From: an uncultured Bacteroidales bacterium
GTDB taxonomy: Bacteria > Planctomycetota > Planctomycetia > Gemmatales > HRBIN36
Direction: 5' to 3'
Length of the DNA stretch: 34,568 bases
NCBI GenBank assembly: GCA_964410845.1
Contig: CAYPJB010000003.1
Location: 1-34,568, forward strand
The notes beneath the pieces were generated by a model. The model made no database searches, was not told the DNA's origin, and saw nothing but the letters and a program-made list of their open reading frames with translations. Each line of letters starts with the position of its first letter. The first letter of the stretch is position 1. The position numbers were made by a program, and so were the translations under genes. Positions 17,965 through 33,393 of this stretch are shown here, one piece after another.

Positions 17965-18042
17965 GAGAGCGCATCTTCCATGATGACTTCTCGCTCGCCC
18001 CCCCCTGCGTTACTGGAATGATCCGAGCTCTTGGCCAGTTCA

Positions 18043-18471
18043 TTAAGGACTACCATTATTATTGAGAAAGAAATAATCACCATAGCGCAAGGAAATCAGA
18101 CCTACTTCTCTCGTATTAAACACAATACAAATACACTCCTTTATGTCAATCTTCTTATTTTTATCAATAAATATATTGTATACCTCAGGTATTTTATGTA
18201 AGGTAGTCAGCTGAAGTCGCCAGATTCTGGCGGGAGTACCTTCGACAGTTTTGGGAAATTCAATTTTTCTAATGACTTTATATGCACCTAATAGTGACAT
18301 AGATTTCAAATCGAAGGCAACTAAAGTTTGCCTTCCAGGTGGCACGTAGACCAACATTTTTGCTTGATGATGCTGAAATACAATTGGCACACTATAATCG
18401 TCTGGATCATATTGACGATCACTGTGACAGTAGAGCAAAACAATAACCCAGAATATGCTCGAAGGCATCAT
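18043..18471 (-). CDS. hypothetical small protein with N-terminal hydrophobic segment
   Basis: 142-aa ORF. Its start overlaps the stop of the upstream ORF (ATGA at 18468-18471). N-terminal SSIFWVIVLLYC is signal- or anchor-like. Very AT-rich. I recognise no family. Confidence 0.5.
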   Translation of the reverse strand: MMPSSIFWVIVLLYCHSDRQYDPDDYSVPIVFQHHQAKMLVYVPPGRQTLVAFDLKSMSLLGAYKVIRKIEFPKTVEGTPARIWRLQLTTLHKIPEVYNIFIDKNKKIDIKECICIVFNTREVGLISLRYGDYFFLNNNGSP

Positions 18472-19364
18472 TTGACTACTTCTTTATTAGACCGGATAAG
18501 GCATCGTGACATCGCTGCAGTACGAACGATTCTCCACAATCCGAATCCTACAGATGCCATAATCAGGAATACTTTACTAGACAGTTCTGGAACCGCAGTG
18601 ACAGTGAGCTGCGATTCTATTGTCATTCCCAAACCAATATCACCATTTCCTTGCGCTCCAACTAAGTCAAGTGTAAATCCCCAAAGCACATTACTACTCG
18701 AGTATTGAAGGTTGTTTCCTGTTTGAGAAGTTCCACCTTTTGCTGCAAACACGTAACCATGCCAAAATATTTGATATGGCTTGGCAACAGTTCGTGCTGC
18801 ATCTTCAAATCGCATAGATCCATTTGGCGCAAAAGGATAGAAAGGAAGCTCTGTGCCATCTAAAAACCAATATGAGCCATCAACCGGATCTGTATAGGCC
18901 CTTGCACCAACTCCCTGCGCACTCTCTAGACTATTGGTATGGACGACTTGTAATAATCTAAATTCCTCTTGCGATGGAGATTGCCAGGGTTGATAGGAAA
19001 GGTGGATGTTTGCGCCGCCTGCTGACATCAATGCAATGGGCGTGTACTGCTCAAGTGTGAATTGTCCATCGGCGGTAAAGGAGCTGATGGTCCAGTTATG
19101 CGCGGCATCGATGTTGCTTTTACCTAGGACAGCAGACATGTTACCTGGAAAAGCAGTCATGCCATCCGACAGAATTAGGTTTGTCACAACAACCTTTCCA
19201 TCTGGTCGAACTGGGCCAATTGCGTTTCCAGAGCCACCTGGCGGAAATTCTCCAGTTGGTTTTTGTAACCATCCAGATTGCGGTGGAAGAACTTGAGCGA
19301 CAAGAGCAGTTGGCAAAAAAAACAAAAGGAAAACTGAATACAACAATGAGTAGTAAGGCATCAC
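18468..19364 (-). CDS. secreted protein with PEP-CTERM-like C-terminal sorting signal
   Basis: Signal peptide (LLYSVFLLFFLPTALVAQ). The C-terminus VPELSSKVFLIMASVGFGLWRIVR has a PE(P/L) motif, a TM helix and a basic cluster, as in PEP-CTERM/exosortase substrates. A strong SD (GGAGGAG) lies 5 nt upstream of the ATG. Confidence 0.6.
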   Translation of the reverse strand: MMPYYSLLYSVFLLFFLPTALVAQVLPPQSGWLQKPTGEFPPGGSGNAIGPVRPDGKVVVTNLILSDGMTAFPGNMSAVLGKSNIDAAHNWTISSFTADGQFTLEQYTPIALMSAGGANIHLSYQPWQSPSQEEFRLLQVVHTNSLESAQGVGARAYTDPVDGSYWFLDGTELPFYPFAPNGSMRFEDAARTVAKPYQIFWHGYVFAAKGGTSQTGNNLQYSSSNVLWGFTLDLVGAQGNGDIGLGMTIESQLTVTAVPELSSKVFLIMASVGFGLWRIVRTAAMSRCLIRSNKEVVK

Positions 19365-19557
19365 ATCTCCTCCATTGTGTCATTTCTAATAATACGATAT
19401 TGTCTTTCTTGACTTTGTCACTGCTTAGAATAGCTGTGTGCCCAAGGTGACAGTTTGGAAACAGTGAGGAGAATACCGCAAAACTGCAAATGCCAATGGC
19501 ACTCTAGCTTTCATTTTAACGGCTCATTTCTCCCCTTTCTCACGTTGCATTGATAAA

Positions 19558-19737
19558 TGCCCGGTGCCCGGAACAATCATGAGAGTTAGCGTGCCACGGA
19601 GGTGACAGTACTCGGTCTCCTCCGTGCTGGACAGTCGACCAATTCGATTTCTTCACGGCAGCATCCTAGCACGGAAGAGAAGGAGTACCTTCACTTGCGT
19701 GGCACGTCATTCTCAGGATCCTACAAAGTACTCGGCC
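19558..19737 (+). repeat. copy B of the hairpin-forming repeat (right flank of low-GC cassette)
   Basis: See copy A. In this copy 19578-19630 pairs with 19665-19717 over about 50 positions with few mismatches and bulges, around a ~35-nt loop. Confidence 0.65.
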
Positions 19738-19830
19738 AAAGTATGACACTCGTTGCACATCATCTAGGCAGGATTCCCGTCATAAGATAGTATTTGTCTA
19801 ACGGTTGCATCGGCCTCTGGGTATAGATGT

Positions 19831-21057
19831 ATGAGTGACACGGCTACGAACGCTACCCCCTCTCTCCAGGAACGCGTTCAATCACTGCGATTGAACAAGG
19901 ATATACGAGTACCTCCCCGGCGGGGTGGCAAACTCTTCTGGTTGATCATCCTGGGCGTCTTTGTCGGTGGAGGGGCCTGGTTGTGGCTCACCTATGGTGA
20001 ATCCCTCCGCAAGGCACTCAGTACGTCCACTTCGCCCATGGCTGTGGCGACATCGACCAAGCCCGTGGAATCCGAGAAGATCGCCAGCAACATTGCATTG
20101 GAAGCAGGTGGCTATATCGTGCCATTCCAGAAAGTACAAGTCAGCCCCAAAGTGGGTGGGCAGGTGAAGGAACTCTTCATCGAAGAAGGCACTTATGTAA
20201 AGGCAGGTGCCGTGCTGGCCAAGCTCGAAGTGGAAGAATACCTCTTTGAGTTCCGCCGGGCTACTGCCGTTGCTCAACTCGCCAAGGCCAAGCTTGACGA
20301 AGCCGAGAAGGGCAACCGGGATGAAGAAAAACTGCAAGCCAATGCTGCTGAACAGGAAGCATTCGAATCCCTGAAACTGGCCAAGGACGAACTCACCAAA
20401 CTGACAGCTTCCGGTAACGCCATCACGTTAGATGAATTGGATAAAGCCAAGAGCCGCGTCCGCATCAGTGAACAGAAGCTCGAACAACAGCGGGCAATCA
20501 ATGCCATGATGAAGAAGGGACAGCGGGATGAACGCAAATCCGCTGCCAAGGCTGAGTACGATCAGGCTTGTGCCGATCGGGATAAAGCGCAATGGCGGCT
20601 GGATAATTGCAGCGTTGTAGCTCCTATCAACGGTGTTATTCTCGAAAAGAAAACAGAACTGGGCAACACGGTTCGCCCTGAAGCCTTTTCCAACGGCCTC
20701 TCTGCTAACTTGTGCGATATGGCTGATCTCAAGAACCTCGAAGTCGAAGTGGACATCAGCGAACGTGATATCCGGCAAATCAAACGAGGTCAACTCTGCA
20801 ACATTAGCACCGAAGCCTTCAAGGACAAGAAGTACACTGGACAGGTTGCTCGTATCATGCCTGTCGCCAGTCGCAGCAAGGCCAGCGTCACGGTGCGGGT
20901 CAAAATCAATGTCCCTGACGATGAGAAAGATCTGCGTCCTGAAATGCGTGCCCGGGTACAGTTCTTGAAGAACCCCAGTGAAACACCTGCACCAGCAACG
21001 AATACCCCTGTAGCTGCAACGCCAACAACCAGCACTGACATCTCTGTCAAGAAATAG
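19831..21057 (+). CDS. HlyD/MacA-type periplasmic adaptor (membrane fusion protein)
   Basis: N-terminal TM anchor, a lipoyl/barrel segment (PKVGGQVKELFIEEGTYVKAGAVLAKL), a long coiled-coil hairpin, and VVAPINGVILEK after the coiled coil. Confidence 0.85.
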   Translation: MSDTATNATPSLQERVQSLRLNKDIRVPPRRGGKLFWLIILGVFVGGGAWLWLTYGESLRKALSTSTSPMAVATSTKPVESEKIASNIALEAGGYIVPFQKVQVSPKVGGQVKELFIEEGTYVKAGAVLAKLEVEEYLFEFRRATAVAQLAKAKLDEAEKGNRDEEKLQANAAEQEAFESLKLAKDELTKLTASGNAITLDELDKAKSRVRISEQKLEQQRAINAMMKKGQRDERKSAAKAEYDQACADRDKAQWRLDNCSVVAPINGVILEKKTELGNTVRPEAFSNGLSANLCDMADLKNLEVEVDISERDIRQIKRGQLCNISTEAFKDKKYTGQVARIMPVASRSKASVTVRVKINVPDDEKDLRPEMRARVQFLKNPSETPAPATNTPVAATPTTSTDISVKK

Positions 21058-21086
21058 CTCCACGGGTTCACAACAAGAGTAACTTC

Positions 21087-21809
21087 ATGTCCAAGCCTAT
21101 TGTGCAATGCAAGGAAGTGGTCAAGTTCTTCCAGCGAGGTGGAGAACGTATCGATGTGCTCCATCACCTCAACCTCACCGTGGCGGAGGGAGAGTTCGTT
21201 GCCCTCATGGGACCGTCCGGGTCTGGTAAAACCACGCTGCTCAACATGATCGCTGGCTTGGATACCCCCAGCGAAGGAGAAATCTGGGTGGGTGACGACC
21301 TTGTCTCTGCCCTGAATGAAGAAGAACTATCCCGTTGGCGAACACGCAGTATCGGATTCGTTTTCCAGTTTTACCACCTGTTGCCAGTGCTCACCGCATA
21401 CGAAAACGTCGAGATGCCTTTGCTGCTGTTGCCATTATCCGCCAAGGAACGGCACAAGCAGGTGTACACGGCCATGGAACTGGTCGGTCTGACCGACCGC
21501 ATGAACCACCGCCCTGGCCAGCTATCCGGTGGTCAGCAGCAACGCGTCGGTATTGCCCGTGCCCTGGTGACCGATCCAACTCTGATAGTAGCAGATGAAC
21601 CAACTGGTGATCTGGATTCCAAAAGCGCGGATGAAATTCTGACACTCATGCAGGAATTGCCCCGTTCGCTGGGCAAGACCATCATCATGGTGACTCACGA
21701 TCCCCATGCTGCCGAGCGTGCCCAGCGACTGGTGAAACTCGAAAAGGGCAAACTCGTCGAAGATTCCTACGTTACCAGCCGTAAAGGCGAACTGATTTCG
21801 GTGAGCTGA
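21087..21809 (+). CDS. ABC transporter ATP-binding protein (MacB/LolD/FtsE-like)
   Basis: Walker A GPSGSGKTT, signature LSGGQQQRVGIARAL, Walker B LIVADEPTGDLD, H-loop VTHD. Confidence 0.95.
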   Translation: MSKPIVQCKEVVKFFQRGGERIDVLHHLNLTVAEGEFVALMGPSGSGKTTLLNMIAGLDTPSEGEIWVGDDLVSALNEEELSRWRTRSIGFVFQFYHLLPVLTAYENVEMPLLLLPLSAKERHKQVYTAMELVGLTDRMNHRPGQLSGGQQQRVGIARALVTDPTLIVADEPTGDLDSKSADEILTLMQELPRSLGKTIIMVTHDPHAAERAQRLVKLEKGKLVEDSYVTSRKGELISVS

Positions 21810-21812
21810 TTC

Positions 21813-23051
21813 ATGAAACTGATCAAGTTAATCCTGAAAAACCTGCTCCGCAACAAGGTGCGTTCCATCCTGACGGCTGTCGCCATTTTCCTGCTGGTGG
21901 CCATCTTCACGCTCATCATGACCGTCATCCGCTTCCTCGATAAGCAGATGATGGATCAATCGAAGGACGTGCTGGCAGTCATCACCGAACGCTATCGCAT
22001 CCCCAGCCGGTTTGATCGGAAGTACATGGAAGACATCGGCACCACTGGCAGCACACTTAATTCCAACCTTTCGAACATCGAAGGCTTCGATGGTTCGAAG
22101 ACCAACCTCTGGCACTTTGTCGGTTTTACCCTTGATCCCACGATGCAGGACAAGGACAAGTTCTTCTTCGTCATCGCTTGCTGGCCTGACAAGATCAACA
22201 CCATGACCGATGGCCTGAAGGACTTCGACAACGATGGCAAGATCGCCAACCTGATTCGCAATCCCCCGGTATCCGGTGTGGACAACATCGGCATCGTGCT
22301 CGGCCCCGAACGCTTGAAGAAACTCGGCAAGAAGGTCGGCGATGTTTTCAAAGCCATGTCGGTGCTGCACAAAGGTGCTGATGGTAAAGCAGTAGAGTTT
22401 GAACTCGAAATTGTGGGAGAACTGCCTGGAGGCAGCCGCTGGGCACAGGGTGGTTTCATGGATTATGAATACCTGAACCGCGTGCTGAAGGCGGTCAATT
22501 GCGACCTCGATGGTAAAGTGAATCTCGGCTGGATCATGACCGACACGCAGGAGGCAGCCATCCAATCAGCAGGCACCATTGAATCGTACCTGCCAGACGT
22601 GAAGTGCGAAACGCTCTCCTCCGCGGTAAGCCGGTTCCTGGAGCCTTTCAAGGACATTCTTTGGGGCGTGAAGTGGCTGCTGGTGCCTGCCATCTTCATG
22701 GTGATGACGGTGATCGTTGCCAACGCCATCAGCATTACCGTGCGTGAACGTCGCATGGAGATCGCGGTACTGAAGGTGCTGGGGTTCGGTCCGAGTCAGA
22801 TCATGTTCCTCATCCTGGGGGAAGGTATTCTGCTCGGCACGCTTGCCGGCGGGCTGAGCGCAACAACCGTTTGGGCTCTGATGAACAACGTAAAACTCCA
22901 GGTACTCTTCTTCGGTGGATTCAATGTCCCCGATGAAGCACTGGTCTGGGGCTTCGGCGCCGGGGCGGTTACTGCATTTGTTGGAAGCATCTTCCCCGCA
23001 CTCTCGGCACGCAGCGTGAAAGTGGTGGATGTGTTTTCGAGGGTGGCTTAG
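21813..23051 (+). CDS. FtsX-like (MacB-type) ABC transporter permease, subunit 1
   Basis: N-terminal LKNLLRNKVRSILT motif plus TM1, a large periplasmic domain, and three C-terminal TM helices with the FtsX-domain pattern (ISITVRERRMEIAVLKVLGF). Confidence 0.85.
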   Translation: MKLIKLILKNLLRNKVRSILTAVAIFLLVAIFTLIMTVIRFLDKQMMDQSKDVLAVITERYRIPSRFDRKYMEDIGTTGSTLNSNLSNIEGFDGSKTNLWHFVGFTLDPTMQDKDKFFFVIACWPDKINTMTDGLKDFDNDGKIANLIRNPPVSGVDNIGIVLGPERLKKLGKKVGDVFKAMSVLHKGADGKAVEFELEIVGELPGGSRWAQGGFMDYEYLNRVLKAVNCDLDGKVNLGWIMTDTQEAAIQSAGTIESYLPDVKCETLSSAVSRFLEPFKDILWGVKWLLVPAIFMVMTVIVANAISITVRERRMEIAVLKVLGFGPSQIMFLILGEGILLGTLAGGLSATTVWALMNNVKLQVLFFGGFNVPDEALVWGFGAGAVTAFVGSIFPALSARSVKVVDVFSRVA

Positions 23052-23053
23052 TC

Positions 23054-23085
23054 AGTTGCTGGTTGTTGGTTGCTTGTTGTTAGTT
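23054..23085. repeat. left (GTTG-rich) arm of 32-bp inverted repeat enclosing the four-helix-bundle gene
   Basis: The reverse complement of AGTTGCTGGTTGTTGGTTGCTTGTTGTTAGTT matches 23487-23518 at 28 of 32 positions (hand alignment). Confidence 0.75.
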
Positions 23086-23096
23086 AGGAGAAGAAG

Positions 23097-23528
23097 GTGA
23101 GCAAATTCAGCAGCTATCGTGAATTGAAATGCTGGCAAGATTCAATGACACTGGTTGAATCTGTGTTTCGAATATCTACCAGTTTTCCAAAGGAAGAACA
23201 GTTTGGTTTCGTGTCACAACTGCGACGTTCAGCTCTCTCGGTTCCTTCAAACATAGCAGAAGGACAAGGAAGAGACTCCAGGAAAGAATTCCTGCGATTT
23301 CTTGGAATTGCTCGTGGCTCCCTCCAGGAACTTGAAACCCAACTGATTCTCGCTCATCGATTGGCTTGGCTCGATACTTCAACTTTTGAGAAGTTGAGTT
23401 CCATGATTACGGAAATCAGAAGAATGTTGAACGGTTTATGCAAGTACCTCCGTACCGGCATGACTGGCAAGACCACTACAGTTCTTAACCAACAACAAAC
23501 AACCAACAACGAACAACTATTACCATGA
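23097..23528 (+). CDS. four-helix-bundle protein of the 23S rRNA intervening-sequence protein family
   Basis: YRELKCWQDSMTLVESVF...FPKEEQFGFVSQLRRSALSVPSNIAEGQGR...EFLRFLGIARGSLQELETQL is the hallmark pattern of this family. GTG start preceded by AGGAGAAGAAGG. The stop overlaps the next ATG (ATGA). Confidence 0.9.
   Translation: MSKFSSYRELKCWQDSMTLVESVFRISTSFPKEEQFGFVSQLRRSALSVPSNIAEGQGRDSRKEFLRFLGIARGSLQELETQLILAHRLAWLDTSTFEKLSSMITEIRRMLNGLCKYLRTGMTGKTTTVLNQQQTTNNEQLLP
23487..23518. repeat. right (CAAC-rich) arm of the 32-bp inverted repeat
   Basis: AACCAACAACAAACAACCAACAACGAACAACT. It lies inside the 3' end of the four-helix-bundle ORF (translated as NQQQTTNNEQL) and ends 6 nt before the permease-2 ATG. 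Confidence 0.75.
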
Positions 23529-24754
23529 TTCCCGTCCGTTACAACTACCGAAATCTGGCTGTACGCTGGCGAACGACGTTGCTGACTGCCATCGGTTTTA
23601 CCCTGGTCGTCTCTCTACTCGTCGTGATGCTGGCGTTCGTCCGTGGGCTGGCGGCGCTGGCAGACAATGCTGGTCACCCGGGAAATGTCATCATCCTGAA
23701 GGATGGCGCCAACGATGAACTCTTCAGCGAGATCAACATCGATGATGTCCACAAGACGCTCTTTTCACTCTGGAGCAGTGATGACACCGTCACTCGCGAT
23801 CCTGATGGCACTGCCTGGGTGAGCATGGAAGTCTATGGCATCGCCACCCAGGAACTGCCTGCCAAGGAACCGGGCGGACGGCCCAGTTATCGATTCATCC
23901 AGATTCGAGGCATGGAAGATCCCATCATGGCAGGCAAGGTCCATGCATTGAAACTCAAATCGGGTGGACAGTGGTTTGACCGCAGCGGCAATCAGTGCGT
24001 GCTGGGCGAAGGGATTGCCCGCGTTCTCGGCCTCAAGGTCGGCGATACTTTCCGCCCACGCCCCGGACTTCCACCCTTGTGGCAGGTGGTTGGCATCATC
24101 GAATCGGCAGGCTCACCCTTCGATTCCGAAATCTGGGCCAAACGCGAAGATGTCGGCAAGTATTTCGGCAAGGACAATGAAGAACGCAAGCAAAGCATGT
24201 ACACCACCATCGTGCTCAGACTGCCCACCTACGAAATAGCATCGCAGGCTTGTGCCTACTACAAAGATCTCCCCGATTTCAAGGTCAATGCCATGCCCGA
24301 AAAGGACTATTACCAGAAGCTGACGGAAAATACTCGTACCTTCCAGGTGGCTGCCATCGTCATCGCCATCATCATGGCAGTGGGCGGTTGCTTCGGTCTG
24401 ATGAACACGATGTTTGCCGCAGTCGCACAGCGTGTCAAGGATATCGGTGTGCTTCGCATTATCGGCTACTCCAAGCTGCAGATCCTGATCTCGTTCCTGG
24501 TGGAATCGTTGCTGATCGCCGCGCTCGGAGGCATTCTCGGCGTGCTGATTGGCCTGGGTGTCAATGGCATTGAACAAAAAGGGCAACTCAGCTCAGGCCA
24601 GGGCGGAGGCAGCAAGACCGTTGTCTTTAAGATGGTGGTAGATAAAGAAGTTATTCGGGTGGCTTGCATCTTTACTGTCGTGATGGGTTTGTTGGGGGGC
24701 ATCATCCCTGCTGTCTCCGCTATGCGGATCAAACCTCTGGATGCAGTCCGCTAA
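23525..24754 (+). CDS. FtsX-like (MacB-type) ABC transporter permease, subunit 2
   Basis: Same architecture as subunit 1 (YRNLAVRWRTTLLT plus TM1, periplasmic domain, FtsX-type C-terminal TMs with VKDIGVLRIIGY). Confidence 0.85.
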   Translation: MIPVRYNYRNLAVRWRTTLLTAIGFTLVVSLLVVMLAFVRGLAALADNAGHPGNVIILKDGANDELFSEINIDDVHKTLFSLWSSDDTVTRDPDGTAWVSMEVYGIATQELPAKEPGGRPSYRFIQIRGMEDPIMAGKVHALKLKSGGQWFDRSGNQCVLGEGIARVLGLKVGDTFRPRPGLPPLWQVVGIIESAGSPFDSEIWAKREDVGKYFGKDNEERKQSMYTTIVLRLPTYEIASQACAYYKDLPDFKVNAMPEKDYYQKLTENTRTFQVAAIVIAIIMAVGGCFGLMNTMFAAVAQRVKDIGVLRIIGYSKLQILISFLVESLLIAALGGILGVLIGLGVNGIEQKGQLSSGQGGGSKTVVFKMVVDKEVIRVACIFTVVMGLLGGIIPAVSAMRIKPLDAVR

Positions 24755-24768
24755 CCGGAGGTGGCTGG

Positions 24769-26067
24769 ATGAAACCGTTGGGAATTGTGCTCCTGGGTTG
24801 TGGTGTCGTAGGCAGCGGCGTGGTGCGGCTGCTCACCGAACACCGCGAGCGGCTCGAACGCCGGGCAGGTCGCTCACTGCAGTTGCACAAAGTGGTTGTG
24901 CGCGATGTCGACAAGGAACGCCTGGTCAAAGTGCCTGCTGAACTGATCTCGACCGACTTCGAAGAAGTCTTCAACAATCCGAATGTCGATGTAGTCGTTG
25001 AATTGATGGGCGGTCTGGAACCAGCCCGCAGTCACATGCTCCGCTGTTTCGCCAGGAAGAAGCACGTTATCACGGCGAACAAGGCTGTTCTGGCGACATT
25101 TGGCGATGAGCTATTTGCTGCAGCCCATCAGTCTGGTTGCACGTTGGGAATGGAAGCCAGCGTCGGTGGCGGCATACCGATCATTCATGCCCTGACACAA
25201 GGCCTGGCTGCCAACCAGATCACCGCCATCAAGGCTATCCTGAACGGAACCACTAATTTCATCCTGGCAGCGATGTCCGAGAGACATCTCTCCTACGCTG
25301 ATGCCTTGCGCGAAGCACAGAGGCTGGGATATGCTGAAGCGGATCCGACCCTGGATGTCACCGGCATGGATTCAGCCCAGAAGCTGGCGGTACTGGCTCG
25401 TATCTGCTTCGGCGTCAGCATCCAGGGCGATGCGATTGAACGGCGAGGCATCCAGAAGATCGATCTGCTCGATATCCACTATGCCCGCGAAATGGGATAT
25501 GTCATCAAGCTCATTGCTGAAGCCTGGATGAGCGAACACCGGGTGGCCTTGCATGTCGAGCCGACATTGGTACACCGTTTTGATCCGCTGGCACAGATGC
25601 CCGGAGCGTACAACGCCATCGAACTGATAGGCGACGTGGTGAAGGATTCACTGCTCTGTGGCCCCGGAGCGGGCCAGATGCCAACCGCCAGCGCTGTGGT
25701 GGCAGACTTGATCGACCTGGCCCTGGGGCATGCGGCCATCAGCTTTAACAGCATGAAACTTTGGGAGACGGACAGAGGCATCGGCCTGCGATCGCCTTCC
25801 GAGATTGAAAGTCGGTTCTACTTACGGGTGAATGCCGAGGAACAGCCCGGCAGCCTGGCACAAATCACTGGCATTCTGGGCAAGGAGCACATCAGTGTTG
25901 CTTCTATTGTGCAGCATGAACAACTGGAAACCCAGCGCGGCCTGGCGGTCCCCATTGTCATCAGTACCCACGCCAGCAATCTGGGCTCTATTCGCAAGGC
26001 TATCCATGCCATTGATGCCCTGGAATGCAGCCTGGCTCCGAGCATCTATATGCCGATTGCTGAGTAA
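24769..26067 (+). CDS. hom: homoserine dehydrogenase
   Basis: NAD-binding start LGIVLLGCGVVGSGV, catalytic region (ANKA...EASVGGGIPII...ILNGTTNFIL...AEADPT.D..G.D), and a C-terminal ACT domain. I prefer ATG 24769, which is preceded by GGAGG; the track ORF extends to 24664 and overlaps the permease. Confidence 0.9.
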   Translation: MKPLGIVLLGCGVVGSGVVRLLTEHRERLERRAGRSLQLHKVVVRDVDKERLVKVPAELISTDFEEVFNNPNVDVVVELMGGLEPARSHMLRCFARKKHVITANKAVLATFGDELFAAAHQSGCTLGMEASVGGGIPIIHALTQGLAANQITAIKAILNGTTNFILAAMSERHLSYADALREAQRLGYAEADPTLDVTGMDSAQKLAVLARICFGVSIQGDAIERRGIQKIDLLDIHYAREMGYVIKLIAEAWMSEHRVALHVEPTLVHRFDPLAQMPGAYNAIELIGDVVKDSLLCGPGAGQMPTASAVVADLIDLALGHAAISFNSMKLWETDRGIGLRSPSEIESRFYLRVNAEEQPGSLAQITGILGKEHISVASIVQHEQLETQRGLAVPIVISTHASNLGSIRKAIHAIDALECSLAPSIYMPIAE

Positions 26068-26096: not shown

Positions 26097-27833
26097 GTGA
26101 ACTATACTAGTATTGAAGCGTGGCGAACTCCGTATTCAGGTACCTATCCTGGTTCATTGGCAGATCTTGTGAGTCAAAACGAACAGAATATAGACTCGAT
26201 TCTCGACAAACCGAGTGGAGACGAGTCGTTATCGCATGATGCGGGATTACAGTATCTTTCACGAGAGAGTTATTCCTCGTTGATGGAAATATGGAAAGCC
26301 CGCACGTCTGATGGTCGTTTGCGTCAGGTCAAGATTCTGAAAGGGCTTTCACAACAACGCACGTTGACCGACAAGGAACTGGAGAAACTCGCCTACCTTA
26401 AGTATTTGAAGCATCCCAGGCTTGCTCCAGTCGACGAGATCCTGTTTGACGAAGGCCGAGTGCTCCTGATCAGTAATCTTCCCGAGATGACCCTGTACGA
26501 TCGCTGGAAACTGCTGAAGACCCAGGGCAAGCCGGGAATCGATCGCAAGGAATTGCTGCAGTACCTGGCGATCATCACCGAATCGCTGGAATACCTGGCA
26601 CGCCACGCCCAGTTATACCACCTGTATCTCAATCCGCATTCGCTCTACTATTTCAGCGGCAGGCTTCGTGTAGCAGACTACAGCCTGCCCCAGCTTGCCT
26701 GGCTCCCTGCCGGGCAGTCGCTCAATCAGTTGGGGCTGCGCTATGCAGCTCCTGAACTCTTTGAAAATGCCTACCATCAGCATTCGGATCAGTACAGCCT
26801 GGCCCTGCTCTACGCGGAAATGCTCACCGGGCAATTGCCCATTCACGGCAATACCCTGAACCAATGGCGGGAACAGCGGCGGAGTATGAAGTTCGATCTG
26901 AAACTGCTGCCCGCTCACGAACACGAAGTGCTCTACAAGGCGCTGGAGTATGAACCCAGCAGACGCTATGCATCATGCACGAGTTTCCTCGAGAACCTGA
27001 TTCAGTCAATTCAGAATTCCAGTGGATACCGCAAGAAATCTCAGGATCCCAAGACAGCAACTGATGCCTCGCTCATGCTGACGGGCGAGACCGTTCCGAT
27101 CATCCCCCAGAATGAAGTAGACATCATCGTCAGGCGATTGATCCAGGTGATCGCGATGAAGACGGTCTACAACAAGGATCAAGGCATCCGCTTTCTGATC
27201 GATGATCAGGGCAAGGTCATCCATCGCTGTGCTGCCTGGCTGCCGGGCGGATTGGCCACCAAGAAGCTGGAAGGCTTTGCACATGAATGGGATGCCAAGC
27301 TTGTACATGTGAACAACCAGACGCACGAATACATCTACAAGATTCGGATGGGGCAAAGCATCTGGCAGAAGCTGGTGGGACGGAAAGCTGAGTTCATCGA
27401 GATTCGCATTCACATGGTTCCGCCCAAGGAAGTGAACGTCAAGCAGACCGAAGTGGAGATCCAACTGGGTTACACCGATGCCAAGCCCGAAAATGAACGA
27501 GACAGGCTCGAAATCGTGGTACCGGCATTGCTGTGCAGCTTAAGAACCTACTTGCTGGCCAAATCCGAAGCACGTGTCGCTGAACGGTATAAGCACCAGA
27601 CCAAGGTCTACCTGTATCCGGTCTATGTCAACAGCATGGGTGATCCGGTGGCAGGGATAACACAAGACATCAGTTATTCGGGAATGCGGGTCTTTTCCAC
27701 TTCCGAGTTCACGGCGAACGACTGCATCGTCCAGATTCATACTGCTGAGTTCGGCTCGCTGATCCTGCCTGCCAAGGTGTTGCGCTGCGAACCACTCTCC
27801 ACCGGGATGTACGACATCGGCCTCAAGTTTTAG
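26097..27833 (+). CDS. protein-kinase-like (predicted pseudokinase) protein with C-terminal PilZ domain
   Basis: The kinase fold is recognisable (VKIL lysine, LKHPRLAPV, AAPE, DQYSLALLYAEMLTG, PSRRY). However, HLYLNPHS replaces HRDLKPxN, DYS replaces DFG, and there is no Gly-rich loop. The C-terminal domain carries both PilZ motifs, RVAER (RxxxR, residues 493-497) and DISYSG (DxSxxG, residues 524-529). GTG start. Confidence 0.75.
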   Translation: MNYTSIEAWRTPYSGTYPGSLADLVSQNEQNIDSILDKPSGDESLSHDAGLQYLSRESYSSLMEIWKARTSDGRLRQVKILKGLSQQRTLTDKELEKLAYLKYLKHPRLAPVDEILFDEGRVLLISNLPEMTLYDRWKLLKTQGKPGIDRKELLQYLAIITESLEYLARHAQLYHLYLNPHSLYYFSGRLRVADYSLPQLAWLPAGQSLNQLGLRYAAPELFENAYHQHSDQYSLALLYAEMLTGQLPIHGNTLNQWREQRRSMKFDLKLLPAHEHEVLYKALEYEPSRRYASCTSFLENLIQSIQNSSGYRKKSQDPKTATDASLMLTGETVPIIPQNEVDIIVRRLIQVIAMKTVYNKDQGIRFLIDDQGKVIHRCAAWLPGGLATKKLEGFAHEWDAKLVHVNNQTHEYIYKIRMGQSIWQKLVGRKAEFIEIRIHMVPPKEVNVKQTEVEIQLGYTDAKPENERDRLEIVVPALLCSLRTYLLAKSEARVAERYKHQTKVYLYPVYVNSMGDPVAGITQDISYSGMRVFSTSEFTANDCIVQIHTAEFGSLILPAKVLRCEPLSTGMYDIGLKF

Positions 27834-27911: not shown

Positions 27912-27959
27912 CAGGACTGAGCACTGACTTCTCAGGACTCAGCACCCAGGACTCCGCAC
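27912..27959 (+). promoter_or_regulatory. three closely spaced copies of CAGGACTNNGCAC immediately upstream of the PSCyt gene
   Basis: CAGGACTGAGCAC (27912-27924), CAGGACTCAGCAC (27933-27945) and CAGGACTCCGCAC (27947-27959). The last copy ends 7 nt before the ATG. Confidence 0.3.
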
Positions 27960-33300: not shown

Positions 33301-33307
33301 TTGAAAG

Positions 33308-33393
33308 TGGCGCTGGTGGGACTTGAACCCACACGGAGCTTACGCTCCAAGGGATTTTAAATCCCTTGTGTCTGCCGATTCCACCACAGCGCC
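33308..33393 (-). tRNA. tRNA-Leu (anticodon UAA), class II with long variable arm
   Basis: Hand-folded cloverleaf. Acceptor GGCGCTG/CAGCGCC. D stem GTG/CAC with an 11-nt loop. Anticodon stem AGGGA/TCCCT with loop TTTAAAA (anticodon TAA). Variable arm GGAGC-GTAA-GCTCC. T arm GTGGG-TTCAAGT-CCCAC. Discriminator A. CCA is not encoded. Confidence 0.9.

Follow-up and report, generated by a model that had tools for sequence, protein, structure and literature searches.

A predicted pseudokinase joined to a PilZ domain with intact c-di-GMP-contact motifs in the planctomycete order Gemmatales

The window analysed here is a stretch of 34,568 nucleotides from contig CAYPJB010000003.1 (GenBank assembly GCA_964410845.1), part of the 690-contig, 95% complete metagenome-assembled genome (MAG) of an uncultured bacterium of the order Gemmatales. 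Among housekeeping genes identified with Pfam, it carries an open reading frame (ORF) that an initial annotation had described as a Hanks-type pseudokinase fused to a canonical PilZ domain, the receptor module for cyclic di-GMP (c-di-GMP). Our results confirm that description: the kinase-like and the PilZ domains both pass their Pfam cut-offs, the catalytic residues of the kinase fold are missing throughout the protein family, and the residues of the PilZ domain expected to contact the ligand are invariant or nearly so. The product is predicted to consist of three folded modules: a dead Hanks kinase fold, a family-specific alpha/beta domain, and a canonical PilZ barrel. The features of the gene and its surroundings are collected in Table 1.

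Table 1. Features of the pseudokinase/PilZ gene and its neighbours. Positions are those of the window; pLDDT, predicted local distance difference test (AlphaFold2).
Feature	Position	Strand	Basis or remark
Whole ORF	26097..27833	+	578 aa from first GTG, then stop
N-terminal residues 1-44	26097..26228	+	predicted disordered, pLDDT < 50; poorly conserved
Hanks-type pseudokinase domain, residues 50-305	26244..27011	+	Pfam, AlphaFold2, Foldseek
Degenerate Gly-rich loop region RESYSSLMEIWK	26262..26297	+	counterpart of GxGGFGEVWK in the active N-terminal kinases of long forms
Beta3 Lys K79 (VKIL)	26331..26333	+	translation, alignment
Catalytic-loop remnant HLYLNPHS, residues 175-182	26619..26642	+	in place of HRDLKPxN
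DYS, residues 194-196	26676..26684	+	in place of DFG; D194 kept
Activation-segment motif LAWLPAG	26694..26714	+	family-specific; L200, W202, P204, G206 at least 90% conserved
Variable inter-domain linker, residues 306-337	27012..27107	+	pLDDT < 50 at 312-324
Alpha/beta middle domain, residues 338-486	27108..27554	+	pLDDT about 80-95; ends in helix 464-486
PilZ beta-barrel domain, residues 487-578	27555..27830	+	Pfam, Foldseek
RxxxR motif RVAER, R493 and R497	27573..27587	+	translation checked
D/NxSxxG motif DISYSG, D524, S526, G529	27666..27683	+	translation checked
Homoserine dehydrogenase, directly upstream	24766..26067	+	Pfam
PSCyt1/DUF1549/DUF1553 protein	downstream of ORF		Pfam
RtcB, tRNA-Leu, MiaA	neighbours in window

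The domain assignments come from searches of the translated ORF against Pfam. Pkinase (PF00069) matched residues 71-303 (E=7.6e-12, 45.6 bits against a gathering cut-off of 31.7), and PK_Tyr_Ser-Thr matched as well (E=3.9e-8); PilZ (PF07238) matched residues 505-578 (E=3.6e-6, 27.7 bits against 22.5), and in a six-frame search of the genome the PilZ domain of this ORF scored 35.2 bits. Since both Pkinase and PilZ lie above curated thresholds, they are not chance motif matches. At E<=10, no other Pfam family was found anywhere in the ORF. An NCBIfam search of the protein gave only generic kinase similarity, far below any cut-off; its top match, the MADS6 anti-phage kinase (47 bits against a cut-off of 460), was rejected as generic similarity of the kinase domain. 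An AlphaFold2 model computed from an alignment of 107 sequences has a mean pLDDT of 86, with values over 90 across most of the kinase fold, and Foldseek matched it to hundreds of kinase structures (E about 1e-12 to 3e-14, TMt up to 0.78).

A word-indexed search returned at least 549 homologues, the closest named ones from Gemmatales MAGs. The query and its 120 best matches were aligned; these 121 sequences have two architectures. Forty-one are short forms of about 550-600 aa, in which the pseudokinase is followed by the middle domain and PilZ, as in the window protein; the other 80 are long forms of about 840-990 aa, with an extra N-terminal kinase of active type in front of the same three domains, and Pfam accordingly finds two Pkinase stretches and a PilZ domain in them. 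In the N-terminal kinases of the long forms, the GxGGFG loop, the AxK Lys, the alphaC Glu, HLD-x-K-P-x-N, DFG and APE are each invariant in 78-80 of 80 sequences.

The pseudokinase domains lack most of this apparatus. Translation of sub-ranges placed every motif named in the initial annotation, YAAPE (216-220), DQYSLA (231-236) and R290 among them, at the residues given there. All glycines of the Gly-rich loop are replaced in the window protein, which reads SYSSLM where the active kinase of the long forms reads GxGGFG, and the loop is missing from the pseudokinase domains across the alignment. In the catalytic loop, Asp is replaced by Tyr177, Lys by Asn179 and Asn by Ser182. The position of the HRD Asp is never Asp in any of the 121 sequences (Y, S or C in short forms; G, N or A in long forms); that of the catalytic Lys is N, T, S or H across the family, and that of the catalytic Asn is mostly S or N. 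H175 is invariant. A family profile aligned to kinases in the PDB sets 'HLaLnPrs' on 'HRDLKPEN' of CaMK1D and 'aDFG' on DFG; this profile and the 121-sequence alignment together confirm the proposed register of HLYLNPHS and DYS and show that realignment restores none of the catalytic residues. The beta3 Lys is kept in 39/41 short forms and 42/80 long forms; many long forms have Q, R or T in its place, and distant short forms Q or T. The DFG Asp is D in 40/41 short forms, and D in 39 and E in 35 of the 80 long forms; position 196 is S, G or C in short forms and G in 78/80 long forms. With no Gly-rich loop, no Gly in the DFG motif and none of the three catalytic-loop residues (HRD Asp, Lys, Asn), the domain is predicted to be a kinase fold incapable of canonical phosphotransfer.

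Elsewhere, the kinase scaffold is under purifying conservation. W66, Y216, P219 and E220 (in and next to the APE motif), D231, E241, G245 and R290 are invariant or nearly so; of the residues that stabilise the fold, H175, APE, D231 and R290 do not vary in the family. Moreover, the pseudokinase is the best conserved domain at every distance (79, 61, 45 and 37% identity, against 69, 50, 31 and 24% for PilZ). That a dead kinase domain should be the most conserved part of the protein argues that it is selected for a non-catalytic role. The activation segment carries a motif, LxWxPxGQ (LAWLPAG in the window protein), which is missing from the active N-terminal kinase domains of the long forms and is a candidate interaction surface; this family-specific motif and the high conservation of the domain indicate selection for a binding or allosteric function.

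In the PilZ domain, R493, R497 and G529 are invariant in 121/121 sequences. Conservation of S526 is at least 97%, and every sequence has either D or N at position 524, while the identity of the domain overall falls to 24-31% in distant relatives. As previously proposed, the two motifs stand at normal spacing: RVAER occupies residues 493-497 and DISYSG residues 524-529, with the canonical 27 residues from R497 to D524. A separate model of residues 338-578 (pLDDT 84) has its best PDB matches among c-di-GMP-bound PilZ proteins, namely MrkH (5kgo), PP4397 (3kyf), YcgR (5y6f), BcsA and Alg44; the first three are the best Foldseek matches of this region, with E from 3e-6 to 4e-5. The isolated PilZ domain matches with TMt of about 0.5 and is modelled as a six-stranded beta-barrel. 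The genome encodes two GGDEF genes, so it should be able to make c-di-GMP, and only four PilZ ORFs, two of which belong to the pseudokinase/middle/PilZ family.

The two domains had been thought to be linked by about 190 aa of unassigned sequence. Part of this does appear to be a disordered linker (about residues 306-337), whose identity drops to 4-28% in more distant relatives; the remainder (338-486) is a folded, conserved alpha/beta domain. In the model, a helix (338-353) and three strands are succeeded by a second helix (384-398) and a further four strands, after which a long helix (464-486) runs into RxxxR. Its identity is 78% in close relatives and 22-36% in distant ones. No Pfam family (E<=10) and no NCBIfam family matched the middle domain, and Foldseek gave weak, helix-grip-like matches only (BamC-N, template modelling (TM) score 0.53; Bet v 1/START, about 0.4). 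The domain is modelled with seven strands and three long helices, and does not correspond to the PilZN/YcgR_N beta-barrel of YcgR-type receptors. We assign it to no family; the best matches obtained with the full-length model were AMPK-alpha and MARK1-KA1. The domain always accompanies PilZ, and a profile of the two together found 426 cluster representatives at E<=1e-30 among 1.84 billion, pointing to a module that is real and recurrent, and of modest abundance.

The ORF has three candidate starts (GTG 26097, TTG 26157 and GTG 26169), all upstream of that used in the database gene call P0002, a protein of 516 aa beginning at ATG 26283 (M63). The latter start would remove strand beta1 of the kinase N-lobe (residues 45-62). 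Since these residues are kept in homologues and are modelled as beta1 (mean pLDDT of 96 over residues 51-60), the true start must lie upstream of ATG 26283, and is probably one of the three candidates. Residues 1-44 show only 42% identity even with close orthologues, and may be partly untranslated.

A third architecture was found in other Gemmatales genomes, including those of the cultured Gemmata palustris G18, Gemmata sp. JC717 and Limnoglobus roseus, and a MAG assigned to Urbifossiella. These single-kinase forms, of about 650-790 aa, start with a lone kinase that appears to be active and continue through a Pro-rich linker to the middle and PilZ domains; their middle and PilZ domains are homologous to those of the window-type family with an hhalign probability of 97.4%. 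The proteins from Gemmata spp. and Limnoglobus roseus (L113 1338-3344 (-), L115 645-3023 (+); P0264, P0273, P0326) are annotated only as Ser/Thr kinases, and their PilZ domain is often under the Pfam cut-off (20.9 bits in P0273). In a tree of the kinase-fold domains, all pseudokinase domains form one clade, apart from the N-terminal kinases, with support of 100 in the Shimodaira-Hasegawa-like approximate likelihood-ratio test (SH-aLRT). The short forms are also one clade (SH-aLRT 100), within which identity ranges from 36 to 87%; other genera of the taxonomic family have short forms that are more distant still (31% and 29%). The tree does not settle the branching order of short and long forms; a loss of the N-terminal kinase giving rise to the short forms is plausible.

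The source genome itself has a long-form paralogue, split over the ends of contigs C288 (L010 3-1997, -) and C446 (L009 2842-3774, -). Joining the two ends over a 5-base overlap yields a continuous open frame of 992 codons, which reads ...DPDPDQRF up to the join and QSCMELIDAL... after it. Further large multi-domain kinase ORFs lie at C223:2399-3919 (+) and C172:3996-4751 (+) of the same genome, among them a 1674-aa open frame with two kinase-like stretches and a 1180-aa ORF that holds the best kinase-domain paralogue match to the window protein (34% identity). Tandem kinase-fold proteins may be common in the lineage. Both short and long forms are present in same-genus genomes and in some other genera of the taxonomic family; five genomes from other genera of that family (G306, G307, G310, G311 and G313; estimated completeness 78-95%, and at least 87% in four of them) have a short pseudokinase form and no detectable long form. 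In the nanopore assembly of Gemmatales MAG 5N134 (L034 3092-4662), an orthologue is spread over three reading frames, probably owing to homopolymer or indel errors of a long-read assembly rather than to a real pseudogene.

The family is found almost only in Gemmatales. A profile search detects it in 42 of the 61 close relatives covered; outside the order, in 300 genomes sampled from the phylum, the profile gave only partial, PilZ-only matches and the module was not found. A single-sequence six-frame search with residues 329-578 in 200 genomes of the phylum returned nothing beyond the source genome. The success of the same profile among close relatives indicates that these results reflect a narrow distribution rather than poor sensitivity. 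Full-length relatives in GTDB genomes almost all carry a Gemmatales or Gemmataceae label, and the few other labels look like the result of mis-binning. Public annotations of family members read only 'serine/threonine protein kinase', 'PilZ domain-containing protein' or 'hypothetical protein', and our literature search found no paper on the pseudokinase/middle/PilZ family.

The gene directly upstream, encoding homoserine dehydrogenase, also precedes short-form genes down to about 30% protein identity (L029, L031, L036, L037, L050), though not in all cases, and shows synteny with short-form genes in several genera (also L028, L030, L033, L034). It is the sole recurring neighbour, present in 5 of 80 loci fetched from public genomes, all of them short-form; for the long forms, no conserved neighbour was found among the fetched loci. 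We draw no functional claim from this adjacency. Scans for promoters and terminators, Rfam families and tRNAs revealed nothing relevant to the gene. Three CAGGACTNNGCAC boxes are reported in another annotation of the window, in the intergenic stretch that follows the ORF (27912-27959), just upstream of the PSCyt/DUF1553 gene. Elsewhere in the window, a tRNA-Leu(TAA) was located at 33307-33393 (-), in an otherwise ORF-poor stretch between RtcB and MiaA, and a MacB-type exporter cluster at 19831-24754, composed of an HlyD-like adaptor, an ABC ATPase and two successive FtsX-type permease genes, with a 470-nt gap before the second permease. Positions 18001-20000 have a G+C content of 0.449, against 0.52-0.58 in most of the remaining window, and a 298-aa ORF at 18468-19364 (-) matches no Pfam family.

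From the domain content and its conservation, we propose that the gene product is a soluble cytoplasmic adaptor, switched by c-di-GMP and itself non-catalytic, that acts on Hanks-kinase signalling; we give this reading a probability of about 0.55. We infer that c-di-GMP binds to RxxxR and DxSxxG, the former placed where the last middle-domain helix meets the PilZ barrel, and that binding would reposition the barrel against the preceding domain, as in the two-domain receptors YcgR, PP4397 and MrkH. The conformational change would be passed on to the pseudokinase, acting by protein-protein contacts and not by catalysis. Its target might be an active Hanks kinase, or the substrates of such a kinase, which it would bind, activate or sequester. 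In the long paralogues, pseudokinase, middle domain and PilZ stand directly behind a canonical kinase, which suggests the pseudokinase as a transducer between c-di-GMP sensor and kinase; in the single-kinase forms, the middle-PilZ sensor alone stands behind an active-type kinase, without a pseudokinase. The relay would reach the kinase domain in cis in the long forms and in trans for the short form. The window protein would then probably be the transducer-sensor unit alone, acting in trans, with the long paralogue of the same genome as a possible partner.

Several observations weigh against this proposal. The inter-domain geometry of the model is uncertain (predicted TM score 0.57), which makes the relay speculative. 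The close clade of the window protein has kept both K79 and D194, which leaves room for nucleotide binding or an unconventional activity. The genomes with short forms only indicate that the long paralogue is not a universal partner, and there is no conserved neighbour pointing to a partner.

The retention of K79 and D194 would also fit a different explanation, in which the kinase-like domain is an enzyme with a non-canonical mechanism, either with relocated residues as in WNK and CASK or catalysing another nucleotide-dependent reaction as SelO and SidJ do, and gated by PilZ. Its standing as the most conserved part of the protein and a pocket confidently modelled as a kinase fold would fit such an enzyme too. 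However, four elements (the Gly-rich loop, the HRD Asp, the catalytic Lys and the Mg-binding Asn) are lost jointly, no alternative acidic residue is conserved at or beside the catalytic-loop positions, and the replacement of the beta3 Lys in many long and distant short forms argues against a conserved ATP-dependent reaction; we consider this explanation distinctly improbable. It is also conceivable, although unlikely, that the PilZ domain does not bind c-di-GMP and serves as a structural or protein-interaction module or responds to another ligand, leaving the pseudokinase as a scaffold outside c-di-GMP signalling. There are precedents, since PlpA has intact motifs yet did not bind in vitro, and the kinase-PilZ protein Pkn1 is predicted not to bind (PMC8316039); the Pfam score of the domain, moreover, is only modestly over the cut-off. 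Against this stand the near-complete conservation of the five motif residues in a domain that otherwise diverges so far, as would be expected from selection for ligand contact, as well as the canonical spacing of the motifs and the GGDEF cyclases in the genome.

Lacking the active kinase domain of the long paralogues, the short form could alternatively be regarded as the decaying remnant of a long-form gene, with no function of its own. The conservation of the sequences effectively refutes this already: the frame is intact, all three domains are conserved throughout a well-supported clade and the still more distant short forms of other genera, and the short form is the sole family member in several genomes. 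The adaptor proposal thus appears the best founded of those considered. An extension of it, which we put forward only tentatively and regard as rather doubtful, is that Gemmatales feed c-di-GMP directly into Hanks-type Ser/Thr phosphorylation through the middle-PilZ sensor, specific to their lineage, with the pseudokinase as an allosteric transducer analogous to JH2 acting on JH1 in JAK, and the window protein as a detached unit that switches active kinases on or off in trans according to the level of c-di-GMP. It would be the first bacterial pseudokinase controlled by a second messenger.

The known targets of c-di-GMP effectors are motors, glycosyltransferases, transcription factors and histidine-kinase pathways, and we know of no established direct route from c-di-GMP to signalling by eukaryote-like Ser/Thr kinases; in Pkn1, the only kinase-PilZ protein studied, PilZ is predicted not to bind. 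Hanks kinases are very numerous in planctomycetes, whose c-di-GMP biology is, to our knowledge, essentially unexplored. The family described here is a well-supported candidate for such a link in this lineage; with two of the four PilZ proteins of the genome belonging to it, it may be one of the main outputs of c-di-GMP there. Kinase, kinase with pseudokinase, and pseudokinase only: these three architectures form a natural series for the question of how a pseudokinase transmits a ligand signal, and the culturable Gemmata and Limnoglobus carry relatives open to manipulation.

Those relatives, the single-kinase forms, share with the window protein the homologous middle and PilZ domains, the domain order, and the kinase signatures DQYSLA and PGIPRxELLxYL. 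They differ in keeping GxGGFG, AxK, HLDxKPxN, D[FY]G and APE, so that they look like active kinases, and in having the Pro-rich linker in place of the pseudokinase domain. Tandem kinase-pseudokinase proteins are known from JAK, with its JH1 and JH2 domains, and from the tandem kinase proteins of plants. The long paralogues resemble them in that a kinase with all its catalytic elements shares the chain with a dead kinase domain, which by analogy implies allosteric control of the kinase by the pseudokinase. The long paralogues, however, are bacterial, carry the kinase ahead of the pseudokinase, and have a PilZ sensor attached; the window protein has the pseudokinase only and is not itself a tandem protein, a single kinase-fold stretch being found in it by Pfam. 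No sequence relationship is implied beyond the common kinase fold.

With YcgR, PP4397 and MrkH, the window protein has in common a PilZ barrel that follows another folded domain, with RxxxR in the junction, and the same mode of sensing, in which c-di-GMP clamps two domains, is likely by analogy. In the window protein, the preceding domain is an alpha/beta, helix-grip-like one rather than a PilZN beta-barrel, and the whole models superpose poorly (TM about 0.3, root-mean-square deviation 15-17 Å). The proposed output also differs, being a pseudokinase and not the flagellar motor or DNA.

The closest described architecture is that of Myxococcus xanthus Pkn1 (MXAN_1467), an active Ser/Thr kinase with a C-terminal PilZ domain that is important for sporulation (PMC8316039); Pkn1 is also listed in bioRxiv 10.1101/814665, so the joining of kinase and PilZ was already on record. 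Both proteins have a Hanks-type kinase fold and PilZ in one cytoplasmic polypeptide. Only the architecture is common to them, the window protein lacking the catalytic residues of an active kinase: its kinase is dead and its PilZ motifs are intact, which is the reverse of the pattern in Pkn1. The window family also has a conserved alpha/beta domain before PilZ, a difference judged by the published description of Pkn1. The fusion of a kinase to PilZ is therefore already known; what differs here is the pattern of dead kinase and intact PilZ, together with the extra conserved domain.

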